Part shown: in pieces, positions 3,064-61,187 of the stretch
How the letters are laid out: the number at the start of each line of letters is the position of its first letter
Numbering within the stretch: position 1 is the first letter of the stretch
Origin: Candidatus Falkowbacteria bacterium HGW-Falkowbacteria-1
Lineage (GTDB): Bacteria; Patescibacteriota; Patescibacteriia; Patescibacteriales; UBA12465
Reading direction: 5' to 3'
Assembly (NCBI GenBank): GCA_002840305.1
Contig: PHAI01000001.1
Span: 29,734 to 93,733 of the forward strand
Length of the DNA stretch: 64,000 nucleotides
Position numbers and translations under genes: made by a program
The notes under the pieces: generated by a model
The model's database searches: none
What the model was told of the DNA's origin: nothing
Seen by the model: only the letters and a program-made list of their open reading frames with translations

Positions 3064-3113
3064 ATATTTATAAATACAGTTTAATTGATATTTATATTAA
3101 AAACAAGATTATA

Positions 3114-3140
3114 TTGACAACTAAAAAAAATAAATATAAT
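3114..3140 (+). promoter_or_regulatory. Sigma70-like promoter upstream of tRNA-Glu
   Basis: TTGACA (3114-3119) and TATAAT (3135-3140). The spacer is only 15 nt, so this is tentative. Confidence 0.4.
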
Positions 3141-3192
3141 ATATAAATACTTTGGCAATAACAGGGATTTTTTTATTTTGCTCAAAAGAAAA

Positions 3193-3233
3193 ATAGATCT
3201 CTCCACTCACTTCGCTCGGTCGAGATGACAAAG
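3193..3233 (+). repeat. REP-like dispersed element, copy A (short form)
   Basis: tAGATCTCTCCactcacttcgctcGGTCGAGATGACAAAG. The same termini recur at 38737-38927, 48802-48850, 59995-60030 (reverse) and 60942-61032. Confidence 0.8.
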
Positions 3234-3260
3234 TATCCTAATAATCTCAAGAATCCCATC
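3234..3260 (+). repeat. 9-nt phased motif array (3 units) abutting tRNA-Glu
   Basis: tatcctaat|aatctcaag|aatcccatc, then 2 nt, then the tRNA 5' end. Confidence 0.7.
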
Positions 3261-3262
3261 TA

Positions 3263-3337
3263 ATGGCCCCTTCGTCTAACGGTTAGGACACCAGGTTTTC
3301 AACCTGATAACACGGGTTCGACTCCCGTAGGGGTCAC
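3263..3337 (+). tRNA. tRNA-Glu (anticodon UUC)
   Basis: Acceptor tggcccc/ggggtca with a G-U pair; anticodon stem ccagg/cctga with loop tt-TTC-aa; T-arm gggttcgactccc. Confidence 0.9.
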
Positions 3338-4952: not shown

Positions 4953-6464
4953 ATGTTTAGATCAAAAAAAGCTTTTACGCTCATAGAACTTCTAGTAGTA
5001 ATAGCCATTATTGGCATACTCGCTACTCTAGCAGTTGTAGCTCTTCAACAAGCCAGACAAAGCGCTAGAGACTCCAAGAGAATAGCGGACATGAAACAAG
5101 TCTCTACTGCTCTAGAGTTGTTTTATAATGAAAATGGTAGATATCCTACTACGGAAGAATGGGATAGTGGTTCTATAGTATCTTCTTCTACGGGAGAAGT
5201 GTTCATGTATAACGTCCCTGCCGCCCCCACCCCTGCCGACGGAGATTGTTCTTCTGCTTCTAACACTTATACCTACACACCTCAAAATGGCGGAGCCAGT
5301 TATACTATAAACTTCTGCACAGGTAGACAAGTATCAGACATGCCAGAAGGAGTAAAGAGCGTAACGCCAGGAGGAATAATTGTAAACAGCATTGAAGAAG
5401 AGGAAGAGGTGGTGATAAACTGCTTAGAAGATTTAGACAGCTGTTCTTGGCAGGTAGTCGGTTCTTCTGGGATTTCTGATGCTGCCGGATATTTTTCTTC
5501 TTTATTTGTAAGTAATGGAACTCCTTATGTCGCTTATAGGGATGTATCAGTATCAAACAAGGCTACAGTTAAAAAGTTTAATGGCTCGTCTTGGGAAAAC
5601 GTTGGTTCGGCTGGTTTTTCGGCTGGCCAGGCTGATTATATTTCTTTGTTTATGTATAACGGGACTCCTTATATTGTTTATAAAGATTTTGTAAATTTAT
5701 CAAAGGCTACGGTTATGCGATACAATGGTTCTTCTTGGGAAAACGTTGGTTCGGCTGGTTTTTCGGCGGGGGAGATATTCCAAAGCTCATTGTTTATTTA
5801 TGAGGGGACGCCTTATGTTGCTTATAGAGATATGTCAGTGAATAGAGCTACTGTTATGAAGTTCAACGGTTCTTCTTGGGAAAATGTTGGTCCGGCTGGT
5901 TTTTCAAGTAGTGTAGCGGTTTATACTTCTTTGTTTATTTATAATGGAATACCCTACGTTGGTTACGGTGATTATACTTGCAATCCCGATGCGGCTACCG
6001 TTATGAAATTCAATGGTTCGTCTTGGGAAAATGTTGGAGCTAGCTGTCTTTCTTCGGCTGGCGCTGCTAAGTTTACATCGATGTTTGTTTACGAGGGAGT
6101 GCCCTACATAGCTTATAGAGATGATGGTGCGCCGTACCAGGCGGTTGTTAAAAAATTTAATGGGTCGTCATGGGAGTCCCTTGGTGTCGTGGGATCCCAA
6201 AATAGTAGCGGCAATTATCATCTTTCTTTTTATATTTATGACAACATTCCTTACGTGGCTTATTCGGATAGCACAAATTCAAATAAATTAACAGTAAAAA
6301 GATTTAATGGTTTGTCGTGGGACGTAGTTGGTGTCGCCGGTGTTTCAAACGGTACAGCCGAATATATTTCTATGTCTATTTATAACAATATAATATACGT
6401 TGGTTATGGAGACGTTTCGGATTCGAACAAAGTTACGGTTGTAAAATTTGCTCCAAACCTTTGA
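4953..6464 (+). CDS. Prepilin-type (type IV pilin-like) protein fused to a 7-blade propeller-like repeat domain
   Basis: Leader MFRSKKA followed by [24 protein letters not shown]; a pilin head with a Cys pair (DGDC...FC) ending in TPGGII; an acidic linker; then seven ~48-aa repeats (xTVxKFNGSSWENVG...SLFxYNGxPYVAYxD). Confidence 0.85.
   Translation: MFRSKKAFTLIELLVVIAIIGILATLAVVALQQARQSARDSKRIADMKQVSTALELFYNENGRYPTTEEWDSGSIVSSSTGEVFMYNVPAAPTPADGDCSSASNTYTYTPQNGGASYTINFCTGRQVSDMPEGVKSVTPGGIIVNSIEEEEEVVINCLEDLDSCSWQVVGSSGISDAAGYFSSLFVSNGTPYVAYRDVSVSNKATVKKFNGSSWENVGSAGFSAGQADYISLFMYNGTPYIVYKDFVNLSKATVMRYNGSSWENVGSAGFSAGEIFQSSLFIYEGTPYVAYRDMSVNRATVMKFNGSSWENVGPAGFSSSVAVYTSLFIYNGIPYVGYGDYTCNPDAATVMKFNGSSWENVGASCLSSAGAAKFTSMFVYEGVPYIAYRDDGAPYQAVVKKFNGSSWESLGVVGSQNSSGNYHLSFYIYDNIPYVAYSDSTNSNKLTVKRFNGLSWDVVGVAGVSNGTAEYISMSIYNNIIYVGYGDVSDSNKVTVVKFAPNL
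5445..6461 (+). repeat. Seven tandem ~144-nt coding repeats (blade-like)
   Basis: Period is 144 nt (for example gct at 5562 versus 5706). The string tcttgggaaaacgttggttcggctggtttttcggc occurs twice verbatim. Confidence 0.85.
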
Positions 6465-7785: not shown

Positions 7786-8118
7786 ATGAGTAAAGCACAA
7801 GATGTAAGCAAAAATGATTTTGTTAAAGAAGTTTTAGAATCTGAATTGCCAGTTTTAGTAGATTTTTGGGCTCCATGGTGTATGCCTTGTAAAATGATGG
7901 CTCCAATTTTGGATGAGTTAAGTGCGGACATGAATGGCAAAGTTAAAATAGTAAAAGTAAACACCGAGGATTCAGCTAATCAAGAATTAGCTGCCGAGTA
8001 CCAAATTCAAAGTATCCCTAACATGAAACTTTTTAAGGGTGGTAAAGTAGTAGCTGATTTTATTGGTATGCGATCTAAGGATACCTTGAAAAAAGATATT
8101 GAAGCTCATTTGAGTTAA
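7786..8118 (+). CDS. trxA: Thioredoxin
   Basis: 110 aa. LVDFWAPWCMPCKMMAP; the active site is CMPC rather than the canonical CGPC. Confidence 0.9.
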   Translation: MSKAQDVSKNDFVKEVLESELPVLVDFWAPWCMPCKMMAPILDELSADMNGKVKIVKVNTEDSANQELAAEYQIQSIPNMKLFKGGKVVADFIGMRSKDTLKKDIEAHLS

Positions 8119-8170
8119 TTCTAATAATCTCAAGAATCTTGACGATTATAAAAATCCCAAGAATCTTATA
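8117..8170 (+). repeat. 9-nt phased motif array (6 units) ending 5 nt before the gdh start
   Basis: aattctaat|aatctcaag|aatcttgac|gattataaa|aatcccaag|aatcttata. Confidence 0.75.
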
Positions 8171-10418: not shown

Positions 10419-13400
10419 ATGTTTAACAGGATTTATATTAATTTTTTAAATAAAAGAATTAAAGCCTTTTCTTTGATAGAGCTAATTTTGGCTGTGTCTA
10501 TTTTGGCTATACTTTCGACAGTAGTTATTATTGCTATAAACCCGGCCAAGAAGTTGGCTGAAGCCAGAAATTCAAAAAGAATAATGAACGTGAGGGCAAT
10601 ATTAGAGGCCACTAATCAATACTTTATAGACAAACAAGACGCTGATATTTTTTCAGTTAAAGACTCTTGGTTTATGATTGGTGATAGCTTGTCCGATTGT
10701 AGTGTAAATTGTAATATTTATTCTTCAACTTCTTCGCCGGCCTTTGTTGACCAAGCTGAGGTTGATTTCTCTAATGGTTCCTATGGTGATACAGAGTATT
10801 CAGGTGGCGGCGTTGGACTGAATGCTTTAGGCAAGACAAATGAAGCGGGATATTATTTGTCAGAAATAAAAGACGGTGGAGACGATTTCTTTTGGAATTA
10901 TTTTTCAGTTTTTCCGAAGTCTCCCTATGGCAAAAGTTTGCCTGAAAATTGTGGAAACGAAAACAATTATTCTGAAAACGGCGTAGGCATGGCTGCCAAT
11001 TCTCTTTTGTTATATTTGGAAGAGGATACTGCACCACTTATTGATAGTTCTTGTCAGGGCAATAACGCTTCTATTGTTGGCTCTGTTTCTTATGGCGAAA
11101 ACGGAATTTTTGGAAATTCGTTAAAGTTCGATGGTGTTAGTGCTTATGCTAGAATAGCCAATCACTCCAGTTTGAATTCTTCTAATAGTTTAAGTTTACA
11201 AGCTTGGGCCAAAATTGATGAGGGCGGAAAAACACAGAGTCTACTTTCAAAGGCCTCCTACAGTTTAAAGGTGGCTTCTGACGATAAGCCATATTTTGAG
11301 ATTCTTGGAGGCTCGGAGAATATAAATTATTCTGGTCGCCCAGGAATAAATGCCCAAGTTAATTCTACAATTGTTTTTGATAATGATTTATATGTTGCAG
11401 CGGCGACTAATGGTAGGGTTTATAGATATGAAGGAGGGAACGATTGGATTGATACTGGAAGACTAGGCACTGCTACTTATATTTGGTCTTTAGTCGAATA
11501 TAATGGACAACTTTATGGTGGCGGTGGAGCAACAGGAACCGTATATCGCTACGAAGGTGACAATAATTGGGTTGATATTGGTCGTTTAGGAGTCGCTACT
11601 TATGTTTATTCCATGGCGGTTTATGATGGTAATCTTTATGCTGGTACTAATGATACTGGACAAGTTTATCGTTATGATGGAGATAATAATTGGGTAAGCT
11701 TAGGACAGGTTGCTACAAACACGCAGATTTGGTCCATGGTTATTTTTAATGGAAATTTATATGTTGGTACTTACGCCACTGGACGCGTTTATCGTTATGA
11801 CGGTGGAACTACTTGGACTGATGTTGGAAGATTAGGAACGGGAACCTATATTTATTCTTTGGTAGTTCATAATGGTAATCTTTATGGAGGAAATAGAGCA
11901 AATGGTCGTGTTTATCGTTATAATGGCGGGACAACGTGGACGGACATAGGAAGACTGGGGACTAGCACTTATATCTATTCTTTAGTTTCTTTTAATGGTT
12001 TTTTATATGGTGCCACTGGTGCCACTGGACGCGTTTATCGTTATGACGGTGGAACTACTTGGACGGATGTTGGTAGATTGGGATTAGCTACTTACGTTTA
12101 TTCTTTGATTGAATATAACGGTGAACTTTATGGAGGGACAAATTATGAAGGATTGGTTTATAAATATAACGGGGTTGATTCTTGGGAAAGTTTAGGACAT
12201 TTTGGTCTTGGAGCGCAGGTTAATTCACTTATATCATACGGCGGCAATTTATATGCCGGGACATATGGATCTGGGCGTGTTTATCGTTACGATGGTAGTA
12301 AAGGATTTTTTAATACTGGAAGACTGGGAACCAATACTTATGTTTATGCTTTGGCTATATACAACGGACAGCTCTATGGTGGTGGTGGGGCAACTGGCAT
12401 AGTATATCGTTACGAAGGCGACAATAATTGGGTTAGCGCTGGTCGTCCAGGGGCCGCTACTTATGTTTATTCTATGGCGGTTTATGATGGCAATCTCTAT
12501 GTTGGTACTAATGATGCTGGGCAAGTTTATCGATATGATGGAGATAATAATTGGGCAAGCCTTGGACAAATTGCTACAAATACACAGGTCAGATCAATGG
12601 TTGTTTTTAATGGAAATTTATATGCCGGGGCTTATGCTACTGGACGAGTTTATCGTTATGATGGTGGAACTACCTGGACTGATGTTGGAAGGCTTGGAAC
12701 TAGTACCTACATCTTTTCTTTAATGGTTTTTGATGGTAAAATTTATGGCGGTGGCGGTTCAACTGGCCGCGTTTATCGTTATGATGGCGGGACTACATGG
12801 GTTGACACTGGAAGATTAGGTGCTGCTACTTATGTTTGGTCTTTGGTTTCTTACGGGGGAAATCTTTATGGCGCTACAAACAATTTGGGACAAGTTTTTA
12901 GATATAACGGAGGGACTACGTGGGCCAGCGTTGGGCAGTTAGGGGTTTCTACCAATGTTTATTCTTTAAGTGTCCATGATGGTAAAATTTTTGCTGGGAC
13001 AAGTGATCAGGGAAAAATTTTTTCTATCGGAGATGGCGCCACTGTTTACTCTGACGTTGACATTAACAATAATGAATTTAACTACATAGCCGGAACTTAC
13101 GATGGTTCAAATTTAAAGCTTTATCTAAATGGTATCGAGAGTTCTTCTAAGGGTTTTACGGCCGGAATTGCTAGTAACTCCAAAGACTTATTAATCGGAT
13201 CTTCTTATGGTTCAAGTTCTGGAGATGGTTCTCAAGTAGGAAGTGAAAATTTTAGTGGGTGGTTAGATGAGATTGCTGTTTGGAAAAGAACGCTTGGTGC
13301 GGCAGATATTTTAAATATTTACAATAGAAGTGTTTTGAATTTAAAATATCAAGTACGTTCTTGCGCTGTTGATAATTGCTCTGACGCTATTTTTGCCGGT

Positions 13401-13772
13401 CCAGACGGAACTGGTGCTTCATATTATAGTGAAGAAACAAACAGAGGAGGTTCTTTGCCTGTTTTTAATTTAGACATAGAAAGAAAACCATATTTTCAAT
13501 ATAGAGTTGATCTTACAAGCAAGAATGAGTTGCTTACTCCTGTTTTGGAAAAGACCGAAATAAGTGGTGATTTAGCAGAAAACTATACTGAGCATGATTG
13601 TTTTAATTTAAACTCTTATTTGGTGCCAAGTTATTTGCCCTCAATTCCTTTTGATCCAAAAACAGGTGATACTGATTTCACTAATTATGCCATAAAGCAA
13701 CTTGACAATGGTCGTTTCGCCGTGAGGTCTTGCTCTTCGGAGCGGGATGATTTTATTGAGCTTTCTAAATAA
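10419..13772 (+). CDS. Prepilin-type N-terminal protein with a LamG/ConA-like domain interrupted by 14 propeller-like repeats
   Basis: KRIKA followed by FSLIELILAVSILAILSTVVIIAI; then LKFDGVSAYARIANHSSL...LSLQAWAKI; 41-aa repeats; then FNYIAGTYDGSNLKLYLNG...FSGWLDEIAVWKRTL. 1117 aa. Confidence 0.8.
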   Translation: MFNRIYINFLNKRIKAFSLIELILAVSILAILSTVVIIAINPAKKLAEARNSKRIMNVRAILEATNQYFIDKQDADIFSVKDSWFMIGDSLSDCSVNCNIYSSTSSPAFVDQAEVDFSNGSYGDTEYSGGGVGLNALGKTNEAGYYLSEIKDGGDDFFWNYFSVFPKSPYGKSLPENCGNENNYSENGVGMAANSLLLYLEEDTAPLIDSSCQGNNASIVGSVSYGENGIFGNSLKFDGVSAYARIANHSSLNSSNSLSLQAWAKIDEGGKTQSLLSKASYSLKVASDDKPYFEILGGSENINYSGRPGINAQVNSTIVFDNDLYVAAATNGRVYRYEGGNDWIDTGRLGTATYIWSLVEYNGQLYGGGGATGTVYRYEGDNNWVDIGRLGVATYVYSMAVYDGNLYAGTNDTGQVYRYDGDNNWVSLGQVATNTQIWSMVIFNGNLYVGTYATGRVYRYDGGTTWTDVGRLGTGTYIYSLVVHNGNLYGGNRANGRVYRYNGGTTWTDIGRLGTSTYIYSLVSFNGFLYGATGATGRVYRYDGGTTWTDVGRLGLATYVYSLIEYNGELYGGTNYEGLVYKYNGVDSWESLGHFGLGAQVNSLISYGGNLYAGTYGSGRVYRYDGSKGFFNTGRLGTNTYVYALAIYNGQLYGGGGATGIVYRYEGDNNWVSAGRPGAATYVYSMAVYDGNLYVGTNDAGQVYRYDGDNNWASLGQIATNTQVRSMVVFNGNLYAGAYATGRVYRYDGGTTWTDVGRLGTSTYIFSLMVFDGKIYGGGGSTGRVYRYDGGTTWVDTGRLGAATYVWSLVSYGGNLYGATNNLGQVFRYNGGTTWASVGQLGVSTNVYSLSVHDGKIFAGTSDQGKIFSIGDGATVYSDVDINNNEFNYIAGTYDGSNLKLYLNGIESSSKGFTAGIASNSKDLLIGSSYGSSSGDGSQVGSENFSGWLDEIAVWKRTLGAADILNIYNRSVLNLKYQVRSCAVDNCSDAIFAGPDGTGASYYSEETNRGGSLPVFNLDIERKPYFQYRVDLTSKNELLTPVLEKTEISGDLAENYTEHDCFNLNSYLVPSYLPSIPFDPKTGDTDFTNYAIKQLDNGRFAVRSCSSERDDFIELSK
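11346..13055 (+). repeat. About 14 tandem 123-nt coding repeats with an 861-nt higher-order duplication
   Basis: Unit G(R/Q)VYRYDGGTTWxDVGRLGxxTYIYSLxxxNGxLYGGT. The phase is exact from 11412 to 13011. The block from 11505 recurs at 12366 (offset 861 nt, or 7 units). Confidence 0.9.
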
Positions 13773-23944: not shown

Positions 23945-24395
23945 AAAAGCCAGTTTTGATTATCAAATCTTGGAAACATATGAGGCCGGAATTGTTTTGT
24001 TTGGTTACGAGGTAAAGTCCGTTAGGTTAGGGCAAACAAATTTAAAGGCCTCTTATATTTCCTTTAAAACCAATAAAAAAGGTAAAAGCGAAGCTTATTT
24101 AATAAACTCCTATATTCCTCTTTATAAACCAGCGGGGATCAAAGATGATTATAACACCGAGAGAGAAAGAAAGGTTTTGTTAAAAAACAAAGAAATCGAT
24201 TATTTGACTATAAAAAAGCAGGAAAAGGGCTTGACAGTTATTCCGATTAAGTTATATACTAAAGGCAGTTTTATAAAGTTAGAATTGGCTGTCGTTAAGG
24301 GAAAAAAGAAATTTGATAAGCGTGATGATTTAAAGAAAAAGGATGTAGACAGACATTTAAGAACTTTGACAAAACAAAAAATACGAACAAATTAG
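23922..24395 (+). CDS. smpB: SsrA-binding protein
   Basis: NKKASFDYQILETYEAGIVLFGYEVKSVR; basic C-terminal tail. It is followed immediately by tmRNA. Confidence 0.9.
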   Translation: MKILAINKKASFDYQILETYEAGIVLFGYEVKSVRLGQTNLKASYISFKTNKKGKSEAYLINSYIPLYKPAGIKDDYNTERERKVLLKNKEIDYLTIKKQEKGLTVIPIKLYTKGSFIKLELAVVKGKKKFDKRDDLKKKDVDRHLRTLTKQKIRTN

Positions 24396-24400
24396 ACATT

Positions 24401-24787
24401 GGGGATGTCTTGGGTTCGATGATAAGATTCTTTTTAAGCATTCAAGACGTGCTGAGTAATCACGTAAAACTTATTCAAAAAATAAGTGCAAAAAACACTT
24501 TAAAGAAGGCTGCTTTCTCATGGAAAGTTCCAGCTTTCGCTCCTGTTGTAGCTTAATAAAATAGCTCAACCATCGGCCTGGTAACTCCTTATAGCCAATC
24601 GCCGGTGTCATTTATAAGGATAGAATTTTTGGGTATCTTTCTCTAAAAATTCGAAGAAAAAGAAAGATAAGCGTTATTTCGTTTCGCTCAATTTTAGAAG
24701 TAATGCCGAAAAAATAACAATTGGGCTACTCTTGTAGTGGTGTTTAAAAAAACTTGTTAGACACGGGTTCAATTCCCGTCATCTCCA
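24401..24787 (+). ncRNA. ssrA: tmRNA (SsrA)
   Basis: 5' GGGGATG pairs with 3' CATCTCC, including the G3-U Ala identity pair. T-arm ACGGGTTCAATTCCCGT. Internal tag ORF runs from GCA 24488 to a double stop at 24554-24559. Confidence 0.85.
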
Positions 24788-24796
24788 CATTTTTAG

Positions 24797-24922
24797 CTGA
24801 GATTATTGAGATCGTTGAGATTATTAAGATCCTTTGGGTGTTTAATTTTATTTTTGTTTAAAAAAGTAAGGTTTTTAAATCCTAAGAATCTTAAGGCTCT
24901 TAAGAATCCTAAGAATCTTAAT
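24797..24922. repeat. Inverted pair of 9-nt phased arrays flanking a ~40-nt core, upstream of tRNA-Leu
   Basis: Left: ctgagatta|ttgagatcg|ttgagatta|ttaagatcc. Right: aatcctaag|aatcttaag|gctcttaag|aatcctaag|aatcttaat. Confidence 0.8.
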
Positions 24923-24928
24923 TCTTAT

Positions 24929-25012
24929 GCCGTGGTGGCGGAACTGGTAGACGCGCTGGACTTAAAATCCAGTGATAGTAATATCGTGGGAGTTCGATTC
25001 TCCCCCGCGGCA
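24929..25012 (+). tRNA. tRNA-Leu (anticodon UAA)
   Basis: Acceptor gccgtgg/ccgcggc; anticodon stem ctgga/tccag with loop ct-TAA-aa; long variable arm; T-arm gggagttcgattctccc. Confidence 0.9.
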
Positions 25013-25023
25013 CATTGAGTCAA

Positions 25024-25095
25024 GCGGGTATCGTATAGTGGTTATTATGCGACCTTGCCAAGGTCGAGAGACGGGTTCGATTCCCGTTACCCGCT
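25024..25095 (+). tRNA. tRNA-Gly (anticodon GCC)
   Basis: Acceptor gcgggta/tacccgc; anticodon stem cgacc/ggtcg with loop tt-GCC-aa; T-arm acgggttcgattcccgt. Confidence 0.9.
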
Positions 25096-25130
25096 CATTA
25101 TTTAGTATTAAAATTAATTTTCATAAAAAG

Positions 25131-25697
25131 ATGAGAAGAAAGTTCAGATTTCCAAAAGTAGACAAAAGACAAAATGAAAAACAATTTAATGCCAACGAAA
25201 AAATAAGGGCTGAAAAGGTTTTTTTAATTAATGAAGATGGTGAGAATGTAGGAGTAATGGAGACCTATAAGGCCTTGCAAATAGCCCAAGAGGCTGGTTT
25301 TGATTTGGTTGAGGTAAACCCTAAAGCCGAAATTCCAGTTGTTAAGATATTAGACTTGGGTCAGTTCAAATATGAACAAGATAAAAAGAGACATAAACAG
25401 AAAGTCTTACAAAAAAAAGTGGAGATTAAAAATATCAAAGTATCCCTTAGAATTAGCGGCCATGATTTTGATGTTAGAGTAGAACAAGCAGTCAAATTTT
25501 TGACCAAGGGCAACAAGGTTAAAATAGATTTAAATTTGCGAGGAAGAGAAAAACAGCATTTTGATAAAGCCAGGGAGGTTATTTCGGATTTTTTGCTTAG
25601 ATTGAAGAGTAATGGTGATTTGTCCATAGAAGAAGAACAGGTATTGACAAAACAACCAGGAGGATATACTATGATACTAGCCAATAAGGCGAAATAA
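25131..25697 (+). CDS. infC: Translation initiation factor IF-3
   Basis: The track ORF 24972..25697 overlaps two tRNAs, so the start was trimmed to ATG 25131. IRAEKVFLINEDGENVGV and DLVEVNPKAEIPVVKILD are present. A non-ATG start cannot be excluded. Confidence 0.85.
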   Translation: MRRKFRFPKVDKRQNEKQFNANEKIRAEKVFLINEDGENVGVMETYKALQIAQEAGFDLVEVNPKAEIPVVKILDLGQFKYEQDKKRHKQKVLQKKVEIKNIKVSLRISGHDFDVRVEQAVKFLTKGNKVKIDLNLRGREKQHFDKAREVISDFLLRLKSNGDLSIEEEQVLTKQPGGYTMILANKAK

Positions 25698-25763
25698 TTC
25701 AGGAGCAGGATTGTAGCCTGATTTTTTAGCTTTTAAATTGTAATAAATTATAATAATATAAAT

Positions 25764-25961
25764 ATGCCGAAAGTAAAAACTCATAAAGCGACAGTTAAGC
25801 GTTTTTCTAAAACAGCTACAAAGAAAATAAAGCACAGAAAAGGAGGTCAAAATCATTTTAATTCTGGGGAGTCTGGTAATACAACGAGAAGCAAGAGAAG
25901 AGACATGACTATCACCAAGACCTTGGAAAAAACAGTCAATAGACTGACTCCGTATAACTAA
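25764..25961 (+). CDS. rpmI: 50S ribosomal protein L35
   Basis: MPKVKTHKATVKRFSKTATKKIKHRKGGQNH. Confidence 0.9.
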   Translation: MPKVKTHKATVKRFSKTATKKIKHRKGGQNHFNSGESGNTTRSKRRDMTITKTLEKTVNRLTPYN

Positions 25962-25969
25962 TAAAATTA

Positions 25970-26058
25970 TTAAAATTTTTAAGATTTTTAGGGTGTTCAA
26001 CTTCATTTTTATCTAAAAAAGCAAGATTTAAAAACCCCAAAAATTCTAATATAAAAAT
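25970..26058. repeat. Second copy of the TIR-flanked ~72-bp intergenic element, between rpmI and rplT
   Basis: ttaagatttttagggtg...core...ccccaaaaattctaa. The core aligns with 24833-24877. Confidence 0.7.
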
Positions 26059-26412
26059 ATGCCAAGAGTAAAAAGAGGAGTGATGCACTCCAAGAGAAGA
26101 AAGAAATTGTTAAAACAAGTAAAAGGTTATAAATGGGGACGAAAAAATTTAATAAAACTAGCTCAAACAGCTCAGACTAAAGCTGGCGCTCATGCTTTCA
26201 TGGATCGTCGCAAGAAAAAGAGAACTAATAGAGCTTTGTGGCAAATAAAAATAAATGCTTTCGTTAGAGAATTCGGCTTGTCTTATTCAAGGTTTATGGA
26301 CGGTTTAAAGAAAAATAATATAGAAATAGATAGAAAAATATTAGCCGACTTAGCAGTTAATAATAAAAAAGTCTTAAGCAAGATAGTGGAAAAAGTTAAT
26401 GTAAAAAAATAA
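26059..26412 (+). CDS. rplT: 50S ribosomal protein L20
   Basis: MPRVKRGVMHSKRRKKLLKQVKGYKWGRKN...RALWQIKINA. Confidence 0.9.
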   Translation: MPRVKRGVMHSKRRKKLLKQVKGYKWGRKNLIKLAQTAQTKAGAHAFMDRRKKKRTNRALWQIKINAFVREFGLSYSRFMDGLKKNNIEIDRKILADLAVNNKKVLSKIVEKVNVKK

Positions 26413-26416
26413 TAAT

Positions 26417-26632
26417 ATGACCTGGATTAAAATAAGTCAATTAATAATCTCAATTCTTTTAATTGTTGTTATACTGCTTCAGAATAAAGGCGCCGCCCTG
26501 GGAGGGGTTTTTGGTGGTAGCGGAACGGTTTTTTTGACTAAACGAGGAATTGAAAAAAAACTATTTATTCTTACTATAATATTGGCAGTACTATTTTTTG
26601 CCAACTCGGTTGCAAATTTGCTTTTAAATTAA
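26417..26632 (+). CDS. secG: Preprotein translocase subunit SecG
   Basis: 71 aa, two TM segments. LLQNKGAALGGVFGGSG motif. Confidence 0.8.
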   Translation: MTWIKISQLIISILLIVVILLQNKGAALGGVFGGSGTVFLTKRGIEKKLFILTIILAVLFFANSVANLLLN

Positions 26633-38700: not shown

Positions 38701-38737
38701 TAGTAGGATTCTTGGGATTTTTAGGATTTCTTATTTC
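38701..38737 (-). repeat. 9-nt phased motif array, reverse orientation
   Basis: The reverse complement reads gaaataaga|aatcctaaa|aatcccaag|aatcctact. Confidence 0.65.
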
Positions 38738-38927
38738 TTTGTCACCTCGACCGAATGAGAAGCGAAGCTACGTATCACCTTTGTCACCTCGACCGAATGA
38801 GAAGCGAAGCGACGAATGAGTGGAGAGGCCTAAAACAACAGAAAACAGATCTCTCCATTCTCAAATCGCTTTGCGATTTGTTCAGTCGAGATGACAAAAA
38901 AGAAAAACTCAGTCGAGACGACAAATG
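38737..38927. repeat. Composite of four REP-like units (two reverse, two forward) forming a large inverted repeat upstream of a pilin gene
   Basis: B1 38737-38769 and B2 38778-38830 (TTTGTCACCTCGACCGAATGAG...GAGTGGAGAGGCCT). B3 38847-38897 (AGATCTCTCC...CAGTCGAGATGACAAA, with inner hairpin CAAATCGC-ttt-GCGATTTG). B4 is partial at 38907-38927. Confidence 0.8.
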
Positions 38928-46744: not shown

Positions 46745-47641
46745 ATGACCTTATATAACCAAAGTGATAAAAATAAAAGAAAAACTTGGTTTTTATTTTC
46801 GTCTTTTTTAATCTTTGTGATGGCCGTAGGCTATGTTTTTTCCTTGGCCTTTGAAGAACCAGCTATTGTTTATATTGCTGTGTTTATTAGTTTTTTATCG
46901 GCGTTTATTAGCTATTGGTTTAGTGATAAGATAGTTTTGTCTATGAGCAACGCTCATGAACTGAAAATAGATGATAACAGAGAGCTTTATCGTTTGGTGG
47001 AAAATTTATGTATAACAACGGGATCGCCCTTGCCAAAAATATATATGATAGATGATTTGGCTCCGAATGCTTTCGCTACTGGTAGAAACCCCAAAAACGC
47101 AGTAATAGCGGTTACAACCGGCCTTTTGGAAAAGTTAGACAGAAGTGAGCTGGAGGGCGTTATTGCTCATGAGCTTTCTCATATAAAGAGTTATGATATC
47201 TTGATTGCAACTTTAACTACAATCTTGGTCGGTATGATTGTTATTTTGTCTGATATTTTCGTTCGTTGGGCTTTTTTTCGTGGTGGCTCTAAAAGCAGTA
47301 GTAAAGATGGGTCAAAAATATTAATAATTATTATTGCGGTTATTCTTTCTATATTGGCCCCAATCTTTGCTTATTTAATGCAGTTTGCCATTTCTCGTAA
47401 AAGAGAATTTTTAGCTGATGCTGATGGAGCTCTTACCACTAGATACCCAGAAGGTTTAGCCAGAGCACTTGAGAAAATTTCTCAGGATGATAATCAGCTC
47501 AGGGCAGTTAACAAGGCAACGGCCCATTTATATATAGCATCACCTTTAAAAGAAAAGAAAAAAGCTTTCTTTGCTAAAGCTTTTATGACTCATCCTCCGA
47601 TAGAGGAAAGAATTAGCGCCTTAAGAGGAATGGAGTTGTAG
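46745..47641 (+). CDS. htpX: M48-family zinc metalloprotease HtpX
   Basis: HELSHIKS (HExxH), 4 TM segments, and a downstream EFLADADGA Glu ligand region. Confidence 0.9.
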   Translation: MTLYNQSDKNKRKTWFLFSSFLIFVMAVGYVFSLAFEEPAIVYIAVFISFLSAFISYWFSDKIVLSMSNAHELKIDDNRELYRLVENLCITTGSPLPKIYMIDDLAPNAFATGRNPKNAVIAVTTGLLEKLDRSELEGVIAHELSHIKSYDILIATLTTILVGMIVILSDIFVRWAFFRGGSKSSSKDGSKILIIIIAVILSILAPIFAYLMQFAISRKREFLADADGALTTRYPEGLARALEKISQDDNQLRAVNKATAHLYIASPLKEKKKAFFAKAFMTHPPIEERISALRGMEL

Positions 47642-47657
47642 TAGAATTATTAGGATT

Positions 47658-47731
47658 CTTGAGATATTTGTGAAGCTTGAGATAAAAATCCTAACAATCT
47701 TAATGATTCCAAGAGTCTTAATAATCTTAAT
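47658..47731. repeat. Inverted 9-nt phased arrays ending at the pyk start region
   Basis: cttgagata occurs twice, 18 nt apart in reverse orientation. Then aatcctaac|aatcttaat|gattccaag|agtcttaat|aatcttaat. Confidence 0.75.
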
Positions 47732-48790: not shown

Positions 48791-48801
48791 ATAAAGAAAA
48801 T

Positions 48802-48850
48802 AGATCTCTCCGCTCGCCATCCGCAGGATGACTCGGTCGAGATGACAAAA
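48802..48850 (+). repeat. REP-like element, copy C (long form with inner hairpin)
   Basis: AGATCTCTCCgctcgCCATCC-gca-GGATGActcGGTCGAGATGACAAAAG. Confidence 0.8.
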
Positions 48851-59994: not shown

Positions 59995-60030
59995 TTTTTG
60001 TCACCTCGGCCGAATGAGTGGAGAGGTCTA
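59995..60030 (-). repeat. REP-like element, copy D (short form, reverse orientation)
   Basis: TTTTGTCACCTCGGCCGAATGAGTGGAGAGGTCTA is the reverse complement of the copy-A pattern. Confidence 0.8.
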
Positions 60031-60937: not shown

Positions 60938-60941
60938 GAAT

Positions 60942-61032
60942 AGATCTCTCCGCTCGTCATCCGTAGGATGACTCAGTCGAGATGACAAAGAGGCTAATAG
61001 GAATAGATCTCTCCGCTCGTCATCCGTAGGAT
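60942..61032 (+). repeat. REP-like elements E1 (complete) and E2 (truncated)
   Basis: E1 is AGATCTCTCCgctcGTCATCC-gta-GGATGACtcaGTCGAGATGACAAAG. A 37-nt perfect direct repeat occurs at 60933-60969 and 60996-61032. Confidence 0.85.
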
Positions 61033-61187
61033 CTGTTATTTATAGCAGGGGTTCGGCGTGACCAACAAGGTCGATCCCGAGAGGGAGGACGCGACGTTTA
61101 AATCAAACTTGTTTCTTTAAAAAGAATATTCATTTGAGAAAAAGAAGAAAAGCTTTAAAATTTTTCACATATAGATCGGTTAAGCTT

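Follow-up and report, generated by a model that had tools for sequence, protein, structure and literature searches.

The phased 9-nt repeat arrays found in the analysed window, a 64-kb stretch of the genome of Candidatus Falkowbacteria bacterium HGW-Falkowbacteria-1, are probably the inverted arms of small palindromic inserts, of the type to which the 23S rRNA intervening sequences (IVSs) carrying a PF05635/TIGR02436 gene also belong. On the best reading of the evidence, the window holds only ORF-less miniature and fragmentary copies of an IVS-like selfish cassette. To our knowledge, the origin of rRNA IVSs and the role of the S23p/intervening-sequence protein (IVP) have been a standing question since about 1990.

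By statistical measures the phased 9-nt arrays are real. A phase-aware scanner requiring at least three units, each scored against AATCYYAA, called exactly eight AATCYYAAN arrays across the window, none of them in coding sequence (3234-3260+, 8117-8170+, 24796-24849-, 24878-24922+, 25960-25995-, 38702-38728-, 47640-47684- and 47687-47731+), against expectations of 0.33 per 64 kb from an order-3 Markov simulation and 0.04 from an intergenic-trained simulation of equal total length. All eight are intergenic, intergenic DNA making up about 9.9% of the window. Taken singly, the 9-mer AATCYYAAG shows no significant enrichment (9 matches in the window, 5.1 expected); two phased units with at most 3 mismatches occur 31 times against 8.2 +/- 3.0, a count reached in none of 100 shuffles. 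Run independently, TRF reported period-9 arrays at 24798-24830, 24878-24921, 25962-25990, 38704-38729 and 47683-47731. The 9-nt phased arrays described in a first-pass annotation of this DNA are thus confirmed by the sequence and the scanner and, at five loci, by TRF, as are the distances that it gave between array ends and tRNA-Leu (6 nt), gdh (5 nt) and pyk (9 nt). Its 2-nt gap before tRNA-Glu becomes 4 nt with re-set unit boundaries, and the motif at 1772-1882 that it had considered related is not a phased array and forms a separate long hairpin. At the gathering threshold Rfam recognised the tmRNA and three tRNAs in the window and nothing else, and the window contains no rRNA gene. Several familiar repeat classes were set aside, namely DnaA boxes (the units have no CACA core), GANTC methylation sites (such a site arises only after a unit ending in G) and CsrA GGA motifs (the RR positions are degenerate), all on sequence grounds, and DNA uptake sequences, those being dispersed rather than tandem.

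The arms and elements of the window are listed below, the element between tmRNA and tRNA-Leu, to which attention was first drawn, being termed the flagged element.

3234..3260, plus strand: tRNA-Glu leader arm, solo, three units, abutting a GTCGAGATGACAAA repeat copy
8117..8170, plus strand: trx-gdh array, six phased units filling the thioredoxin-gdh spacer
24796..24832, minus strand: left reversed arm of the flagged element, four clear 9-nt units, in minus-strand reading GATCTTAAT AATCTCAAC GATCTCAAT AATCTCAGC
24833..24877: centre of the flagged element, 45 nt
24878..24922, plus strand: right forward arm of the flagged element, five units, AATCCTAAG AATCTTAAG GCTCTTAAG AATCCTAAG AATCTTAAT
25960..25995, minus strand: reversed arm of the rpmI-rplT element, four AT-drifted units, starting at the rpmI stop codon
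25996..26031: rpmI-rplT element centre, homologous to that of the flagged element
26032..26058, plus strand: forward arm of the rpmI-rplT element, degenerate, AACCCCAAA AATTCTAAT ATAAAAAT, reaching up to the rplT ATG (26059)
38702..38728, minus strand: solo arm after the P-type ATPase gene, three units, 54 nt past the gene
47640..47684, minus strand: reversed arm of the htpX-pyk element, five units
47687..47731, plus strand: forward arm of the htpX-pyk element, five units, with a gap of 9 nt to the pyruvate kinase ATG (47741)

As a whole, the flagged element (24796-24922) is a palindromic insert of about 127 nt, whose left arm starts 8 nt past the tmRNA 3' end (24788) and whose right arm ends 6 nt before tRNA-Leu (24929). 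Its centre is homologous to that of the rpmI-rplT element 1.1 kb away (GGGTGTTYAAYTTYATTTTTRTYTAAAAAAGYAAGR; 24836-24871 and 25996-26031), with differences that are all transitions; apart from these two window copies, centres are unrelated among copies. The forward arm at 26032-26058 does run to the rplT ATG, as the first-pass annotation had it, but it is degenerate (about two units can be recognised) and was not called by the scanner. The two htpX-pyk arms make up a 5+5 element with a 2-nt centre, and the outermost unit of its reversed arm provides the TAG stop of an M48 peptidase gene (46745-47641). Facing arrays at three loci are indeed inverted pairs, although the gaps between them are about 45, 35 and 2 nt and not 30-45 nt throughout. 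In the trx-gdh array the thioredoxin stop lies inside the first unit, the last unit ends 5 nt before the gdh ATG, and the two middle units are degenerate and contain one reversed unit that gives a small hairpin. Upstream of the tRNA-Glu leader arm, near 3113-3141, there is a promoter-like TTGACA-N17-TATAAT site, and the solo arm at 38702..38728 is joined to a GTCGAGGTGACAAA repeat through the same junction as is found at 3219-3260. The copies sit in very short transcribed spacers (tmRNA to tRNA-Leu, rpmI-rplT, trx-gdh, htpX-pyk and the tRNA-Glu leader).

The unit consensus is AATC-YY-AA-N, with C or T at positions 5-6 and a free position 9, a conservation that is partly circular, since the conserved positions are what the scanner selects for. 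At position 8 the final unit of an array typically deviates from this consensus (AATCYYAYN), and since this departure is penalised by the scanner it marks a genuine, defined outer end; the outer ends of elements often read TGT...ACA or TAT...ATA. Arms face outward from mid-spacer to whichever gene boundary flanks them, start or stop. Forward arrays end 0-10 nt before the start codons of gdh, rplT, pyk, atpA, mreB, rpsM and rnhA, and these start codons are genuine, as canonical N-termini show for pyruvate kinase, L20, GDH and S13. Reversed arms abut stop codons as often as forward arms abut starts, and the gene upstream often takes its stop codon from their outer unit, ...AATCCTA.. being ..TAGGATT when reverse-complemented. 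With stop and start both flush with the arms, reversed arm, centre and forward arm therefore take up the whole spacer. The proximity to gene starts first reported is thus real, yet it is only half of a symmetric start/stop pattern. In two genomes (L254 and L256) the forward arm is even translated as an N-terminal extension of the alpha subunit of 2-oxoacid:ferredoxin oxidoreductase (POR), a case in point for the annotation of such genomes, in which start and stop codons beside arrays may come from the element.

Comparison with four other Falkowbacteria (L125-L128), whose L20 proteins are 83-87% identical, places the arrays among additions to a conserved gene neighbourhood. The order tig-smpB-tmRNA-tRNALeu-tRNAGly-infC-rpmI-rplT-secG is common to the window and all four relatives, and the spacer between tmRNA and tRNA-Leu measures 10-12 nt in the relatives against 140 nt in the window, which marks the flagged element as an insertion. 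The outer bases of the old spacer have been retained in the window, which reads ATTT, the 127-nt element and TTCTTAT where L125 has ATTTGTTGTCAT, and a flank pattern ATTT...TTsTyAT is kept across the window and the relatives. Between rpmI and rplT the relatives have a spacer of 52-69 nt without an array, and their overall array density is about 1 per 80 kb, as against eight per 64 kb in the window. Conservation at orthologous loci, as would be expected of regulatory arrays, was not borne out in these four syntenic relatives. Judged by this sequence comparison, the arrays are lineage-specific insertions and not conserved control sites, because they are missing at the orthologous sites of the relatives. 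Neither the tmRNA/tRNA-Leu junction nor the sequence flanking about 20 elements showed a direct repeat representing a target-site duplication, the exact ends of the elements being fuzzy, and a defined cleavage site was not found either.

The identity of the insert is suggested by its counterparts in other Patescibacteria. Pattern scans of genome and metagenome collections returned many coding NPN or ESQ repeat matches, which were treated as noise, and also matched several Patescibacteria with non-coding arrays. In JBAZPX-like genomes these take the form of a stereotyped element of five reversed units, a 13-17-nt centre and five forward units, about 105 nt in total. Among 27 distinct paired elements 18 have a 5+5 arrangement, and five units, found in 42 of the 54 arms, are the mode. 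Centre lengths in these 27 elements are bimodal, with one class at -1 to 30 nt and another at 358-387 nt, and all five long centres are occupied by an ORF for PF05635/TIGR02436, the protein of 23S rRNA intervening sequences (E = 1.4e-32). A complete cassette thus comprises five reversed 9-nt units, an IVP ORF (~120 aa) and five forward units. In NCBIfam the cassette protein is TIGR02436, 'four helix bundle protein'. Assignment as the DGR accessory protein Avd was rejected, as NF033474 scored 37 bits against a cut-off of 80 and the neighbouring gene encodes RNase H, not RT; PADLOC had no match for IVP, so that no link to a defence system emerged.

An independent test used four IVP homologues (69-86% identity) chosen by identity and contig size with their flanks unseen. 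All four proved to be bracketed by AATCYYAAN-type arms, mostly 5+5. One lies in a recJ-IVP-rnhA arrangement and three, in three genomes including a Falkowbacteria MAG, in the POR operon, between the genes for ferredoxin (delta) and the alpha subunit. Autocorrelation showed a lag-9 peak in 11 of 12 flanks, and arms and IVP genes were associated in every case examined. The window itself has no IVP ORF (hmmsearch over all ORFs of at least 60 aa), and among the best 120 homologues of a Falkowbacteria IVP none is attributable to HGW-Falkowbacteria-1; the link between the window and IVP therefore rests on shared architecture and not on a cassette in the same genome. The centre of the flagged element has no similarity to IVP cassettes, and a blastn-short comparison of the window centres with all loci compared gave nothing meaningful, for which reason the idea that these centres are relics of an IVP ORF was rejected.

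The association extends beyond the 9-nt unit. A homologue search with a word filter (E <= 1e-8) yielded more than 7,700 IVP homologues, and six other IVP clades (L125, L107, L146, L262 IVP2, L263 and L265) have inverted arms with a 7-nt phase, so that the arm unit differs between IVP clades. In the Falkowbacteria relative L125 the IVP gene sits between tRNA-Leu and tRNA-Gly, flanked by TGTTCAA TTATCAA TTATCAA TTATCAA TGTTCAA on one side and five AATTGAN units on the other, and in Chloracidobacterium (L107) the units are GTGATGA and the 31-nt arms are 100% complementary; both have about five units per arm. Relatives of the protein in the PDB, 2GSC and 2RLD, have five chains each, and a passage of PMC4990558 cites a Xanthomonas S23p structure as a homopentamer. 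That five units are met by five subunits may be a coincidence.

Some of these features have precedents. It is already known that IVSs carry an S23p ORF and inverted-repeat ends, and heptamer repeats have been noted for Coxiella, whose 23S IVS, termed a selfish element, has a stem of 28-bp terminal inverted repeats that RNase III cuts and combines an S23p ORF with 2-3 tandem GACAGAT heptamers, their number being strain-dependent (PMC4990558). In CPR bacteria, 16S and 23S genes contain IVP ORFs plus many short ORF-less inserts (PMC11270868). No account of the cassette architecture outside rRNA genes was found in a literature search of incomplete coverage, and an earlier description is possible; nor did the literature searched hold an account of five-unit phased arms across IVP clades and their match to a pentamer, or of a proliferation of ORF-less miniatures in CPR intergenic spacers.

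Several observations bear on movement and turnover of these elements. A dN/dS of 0.03-0.18 indicates purifying selection on IVP, which is therefore a working protein, and truncated IVP ORFs of 78-83 aa also exist. One cassette is more alike between two genomes, at different loci, than are their housekeeping genes, as the recJ-rnhA cassette of L262 (8959-9406) and a JBAZPX cassette located elsewhere share 90.6% identity across 449 nt that include the arms, the other megablast match between those loci being lepA only, at 83.5%. The recJ-rnhA site of JBAZPX is occupied by a more distant copy (86% protein identity). One intergenic site, between a DUF2283 start and the end of the next gene, holds a miniature element with 9-nt units in JBAZPX and a different IVP cassette, with 7-nt arms, in L262, and the POR operon of L262 has no insert at the position filled in three other genomes. 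Orthologous miniatures (L146 compared with L229 and L202) show changes at the level of single units with the number of five kept, and a Taylorbacteria arm has expanded in one assembly (L268 compared with L265). Copies within one genome have a common unit consensus and no long identical stretches, unlike recently transposed MITEs.

How such inserts could be tolerated flush against gene ends is suggested by their ability to pair. The flagged element is predicted to fold at -35.4 kcal/mol (z = -4.0), its paired arms giving a long imperfect hairpin, as in other paired elements, while the region 3225-3264 alone folds at 0 kcal/mol, the forward arm being G-poor and predicted to be unstructured by itself. 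In a read-through transcript the two arms would form an imperfect duplex of about 45 bp, with 7-8 bp per unit and a mismatch at the free position, which by analogy with rRNA IVSs RNase III might remove. With such excision, inserts beside start codons, stop codons and tRNA ends would do almost no harm, which would explain their persistence there. The AATC..AA core may be kept because each subunit of a pentameric IVP, or of another element-specific factor, reads one unit; clade-specific units would follow from such recognition, which might serve the spread or maintenance of the cassette. Nearness to gene starts could mean that, in a compact genome, inserts survive only in tiny spacers, and not that they act as promoters. 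Against this scheme, RNase III was seen in the relative L125 only and not among the annotated genes of the window. Folding of both strands of eight paired elements with known transcription direction favoured the sense strand in three, the antisense strand in four and neither in one, and revealed no G-U excess or steady sense-strand advantage. There is therefore no RNA-specific (G-U) signature backing an RNase III hairpin, and the notion of the arrays as, first and foremost, an RNA hairpin under selection was dropped for want of a sense-strand advantage, although inverted repeats are still able to pair. The solo three-unit arms at 3234 and 38702 do not fit a complete element.

A binding protein for the arms, for which the first-pass annotation had offered an abundant regulator or nucleoid protein, is plausible in view of the conserved AATC..AA core, the five units per arm and the pentameric cassette protein. 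The arrays could be viewed as operators, on whose units a protein (IVP or a nucleoid-type factor) polymerises so as to regulate the neighbouring genes, their spread amounting to regulon expansion. Such a view would accommodate the free YY and N positions within an otherwise conserved unit (a pattern that is in part a product of scanner selection), the termination of forward arrays 0-10 nt before true start codons, and the constancy of five units where orthologous elements differ in their units (L146 and L229). It is unlikely nonetheless, given that orthologous genes of syntenic relatives (rplT, tRNA-Leu) have no arrays, that stop codons are abutted by reversed arms equally often, that the downstream genes, tRNAs among them, are functionally unrelated and form no coherent regulon, that arrays lie inside operons (rpmI-rplT, POR delta-alpha), and that a forward arm is translated within the POR alpha gene of L254 and L256. 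Several of the same observations weigh on the proposal that the arrays are a promoter, a UP-like element or a translational-enhancer leader for genes without a Shine-Dalgarno sequence, which we regard as very unlikely. Arrays do stand directly before start codons with no room for a Shine-Dalgarno sequence, and their G-poor forward arm is predicted to be unstructured alone; however, a consensus scan found no sigma-70-like hexamers and no -35/-10 pair in the arrays of the 24300-26500 region, other parts of the window show canonical TTGACA-N17-TATAAT promoters, arrays also occur before tRNAs and after gene 3' ends, most window genes without a Shine-Dalgarno sequence have no array, and neither do the orthologous genes of the relatives. 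The unusual promoter architecture offered by the first-pass annotation is thus not supported, in view of 3'-end arrays, overlap with stop codons, the missing -35/-10 match and the 10-12-nt spacer of the relatives.

A further reading would make the arrays the terminal inverted repeats of a DDE-type MITE, their units being multiple binding sites of an unseen transposase, like those at the ends of Tn7 or Mu, and IVP a passenger. The defined outer ends with a last unit off the internal consensus, the clean insertion into a 12-nt spacer and the fixed element length of about 105 nt would all agree with it, yet we consider it quite unlikely, since none of about 60 arrays examined has a transposase nearby, target-site duplications were not observed, the copies are not near-identical, and the sole recurrent cargo, in 5/5 long centres, is IVP, a TIGR02436 protein not known as a transposase. 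Moreover, each unrelated IVP clade has its own arm unit, as expected under co-evolution of IVP and arms but not for a passenger. Chance low-complexity sequence, or a slipped-strand microsatellite of no wider meaning, could draw on the AT-rich composition of the genome (~33% GC) and on the lack of significant enrichment of the single 9-mer; its probability is negligible, eight phased arrays against 0.33 or 0.04 expected excluding chance, and inverted pairing, the fixed five units, a like architecture in several genomes and the strict IVP association pointing the same way. Palindromic inserts akin to the 23S IVS therefore stay the preferred reading. The interpretation first put forward is in this respect partly supported, its promoter option having found no support and its 'remnants of a small mobile element' coming closest to the evidence, as the flagged element is an insertion and the arms bracket an IVP gene elsewhere.

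The likeness of the window elements to 23S IVSs with an S23p/IVP ORF (of the Leptospira, Coxiella and Xanthomonas type) lies in the terminal inverted repeats and long stem and in a sporadic, insertion-like distribution, and IVP cassettes share with them an optional central ORF for a ~120-aa four-helix bundle of the same family. The Coxiella IVS also has short tandem repeats within its arms (PMC4990558), and CPR rRNA inserts likewise come in ORF-bearing and ORF-less versions (PMC11270868). In contrast to 23S IVSs, the window inserts reside not in rRNA helices but in tRNA/tmRNA spacers, operon spacers and leaders, their arms consist of exactly phased 9-nt units, usually five per arm, and many ORF-less miniatures occur in one genome, RNase III excision being here a putative step. 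Short intergenic palindromes near genes that form hairpins in transcripts are also typical of REPIN/REP-RAYT systems and of MITEs such as the Correia elements of Neisseria; a gene-bearing 'master' version between copies of its repeats is likewise common to those systems and the present elements, and the terminal inverted repeats and fixed small size of the present elements are MITE features. Unlike either, the elements described here have as central gene a PF05635 four-helix bundle rather than a Y1/HUH or DDE transposase, no target-site duplication has been found, only the unit consensus is shared among copies, and the arms are internally periodic; the GTAG-type motif of REP sequences is absent as well.

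TRAP, an 11-mer bound to 11 GAG/UAG repeats, and HutP are rings in which each subunit reads a short repeat, and the five repeats per arm similarly equal the five chains in 2GSC and 2RLD, IVP binding being putative. The inverted two-arm layout, unlike the targets of TRAP and HutP, suggests double-stranded DNA or a hairpin and not a single-stranded RNA track. Operator arrays of phased sites are exemplified by the 8-bp metboxes of MetJ and the 7-bp heptads of omega, direct and inverted, which resemble the present arrays as strictly phased short units set in rows, in both orientations, beside genes; the present arrays differ in lacking conservation at orthologous genes, in being found at 3' ends and in operon interiors, and in defining no coherent regulon.

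These findings suggest that IVP genes are set between inverted phased-repeat tracks in which the number of repeats per arm matches a pentameric assembly, and that gene-less miniatures occupy operon and tRNA spacers of reduced CPR genomes. They yield a testable hypothesis for the function of a very large family so far labelled by NCBI only as 'four helix bundle protein', namely that IVP binds the five-unit arms, and account for conspicuous intergenic repeats that are otherwise open to misreading as promoters or regulatory sites. More broadly, and tentatively, it is possible that IVP proteins are the dedicated nucleic-acid-binding factor of a widespread and hitherto unrecognised class of palindromic cassettes, whose arms would be five 7- or 9-nt repeats, one per subunit, with protein clade and repeat unit co-evolving; rRNA IVSs would then be those copies that landed in rRNA genes, and ORF-less miniatures would be mobilised or maintained in trans. 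Palindromes with a AATCCTAAA unit were also observed in Bacteroidota, Ignavibacteria and Kapaibacteria.

In two of the genomes in which an intervening-sequence protein (IVP) cassette lies within the 2-oxoacid:ferredoxin oxidoreductase (POR) operon, the forward arm 3′ of the IVP gene is translated in frame, adding an N-terminal extension of about 17 amino acids to POR alpha (positions 2863–2920 in both L254 and L256, the loci from these genomes; example peptide MKKTQKSQRSQISPKSQI-LEGS...). The POR alpha start codon overlaps the IVP stop codon (ATGA in L254) or comes directly after it, and position 6 is a C in all arm units read through into POR alpha at these loci, so that a TAA stop codon is avoided.

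A further IVP cassette, with arms built on a 7-nt unit, is located between tRNA-Leu and tRNA-Gly in a close relative (8450–8990 of L125, a syntenic Falkowbacteria locus); in three other relatives, as in the window, only 10 nt separate these two tRNA genes. The tmRNA-tRNA cluster has thus been struck independently by two cassette types, one with 7-nt arms in L125 and one of the 9-nt family in the window. In Taylorbacteria, one arm of an IVP cassette is about 47 nt longer in one assembly (L268 versus L265, at about 975–1075) through extra CTAGAAC/CTAGCAG units, a case of arm-repeat copy-number variation between populations.

Palindromic elements built on the same 9-nt unit (AATCCTAAA) also occur in Chitinophagales, Saprospiraceae, Sphingobacteriales and Kapaibacteria genomes, at the Bacteroidota loci L022, L027, L041, L044, L072, L094, L114 and L116, and at the Kapaibacterium locus L009. 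As a rule these comprise 3+3 units, with sharply defined ends (TTTGAATTAGGATT...AATCCTAATTCAAA or GTCTGAA...TTCAGAC) and variable yet self-complementary centres, and the palindrome of L022 exceeds 250 bp. Five-unit arrays of the 9-nt family are likewise found in MAG CAYVIA, labelled Gammaproteobacteria (L054, L059, L120), one of them stopping 2 nt upstream of the rpsM ATG; either that assignment is open to doubt, or elements of this family are not confined to Patescibacteria.

The window holds other repetitive and structured elements.

Repeats and hairpin in the window
3196–3232, 38738–38925, 48800–48849, 59997–60030, 60940–61040: second repeat family, AGATCTCTCC/TCGGTCGAGATGACAAA
1768–1886, minus strand: long hairpin of about 115 nt, downstream of tsaD
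5559–5944: long coding tandem repeat, period 144 nt, inside large ORF 4953–6464
11775–12106: long coding tandem repeat, period 123 nt, inside large ORF 10419–13772

The second repeat family, of the form AGATCTCTCC-(15–25 nt)-TCGGTCGAGATGACAAA and frequently in inverted pairs, is unrelated to the 9-nt arrays. Its sequence GTCGAGRTGACAAA was counted eight times in the window against 0.38 expected, and is nearly missing in 262 other loci. Twice, at 3219–3260 and 38702–38751, a second-family repeat is joined to a three-unit 9-nt arm by an identical junction.

The hairpin does not belong to the 9-nt family. Its minus strand folds far better than its plus strand (−51.3 kcal/mol, z = −6.9, versus −30.3), and an Rfam search of 1768–1886 returned no match. 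Possible identities are a structured small RNA and yet another palindromic element. Both coding tandem repeats comprise about 2.7 copies at 71–73% identity, and their ORFs probably encode repeat-domain surface proteins.

A Shine-Dalgarno sequence is not recognisable before the ATG of most window genes, intergenic examples lying upstream of 4953, 7786, 10419, 18441, 20561 and 22637. Visible in the sequence are textbook TTGACA-N17-TATAAT promoters (near 3113, 6550, 7440 and 31400) and classic terminators, each a hairpin with a T-run (near 1745, 13790 and 32050).
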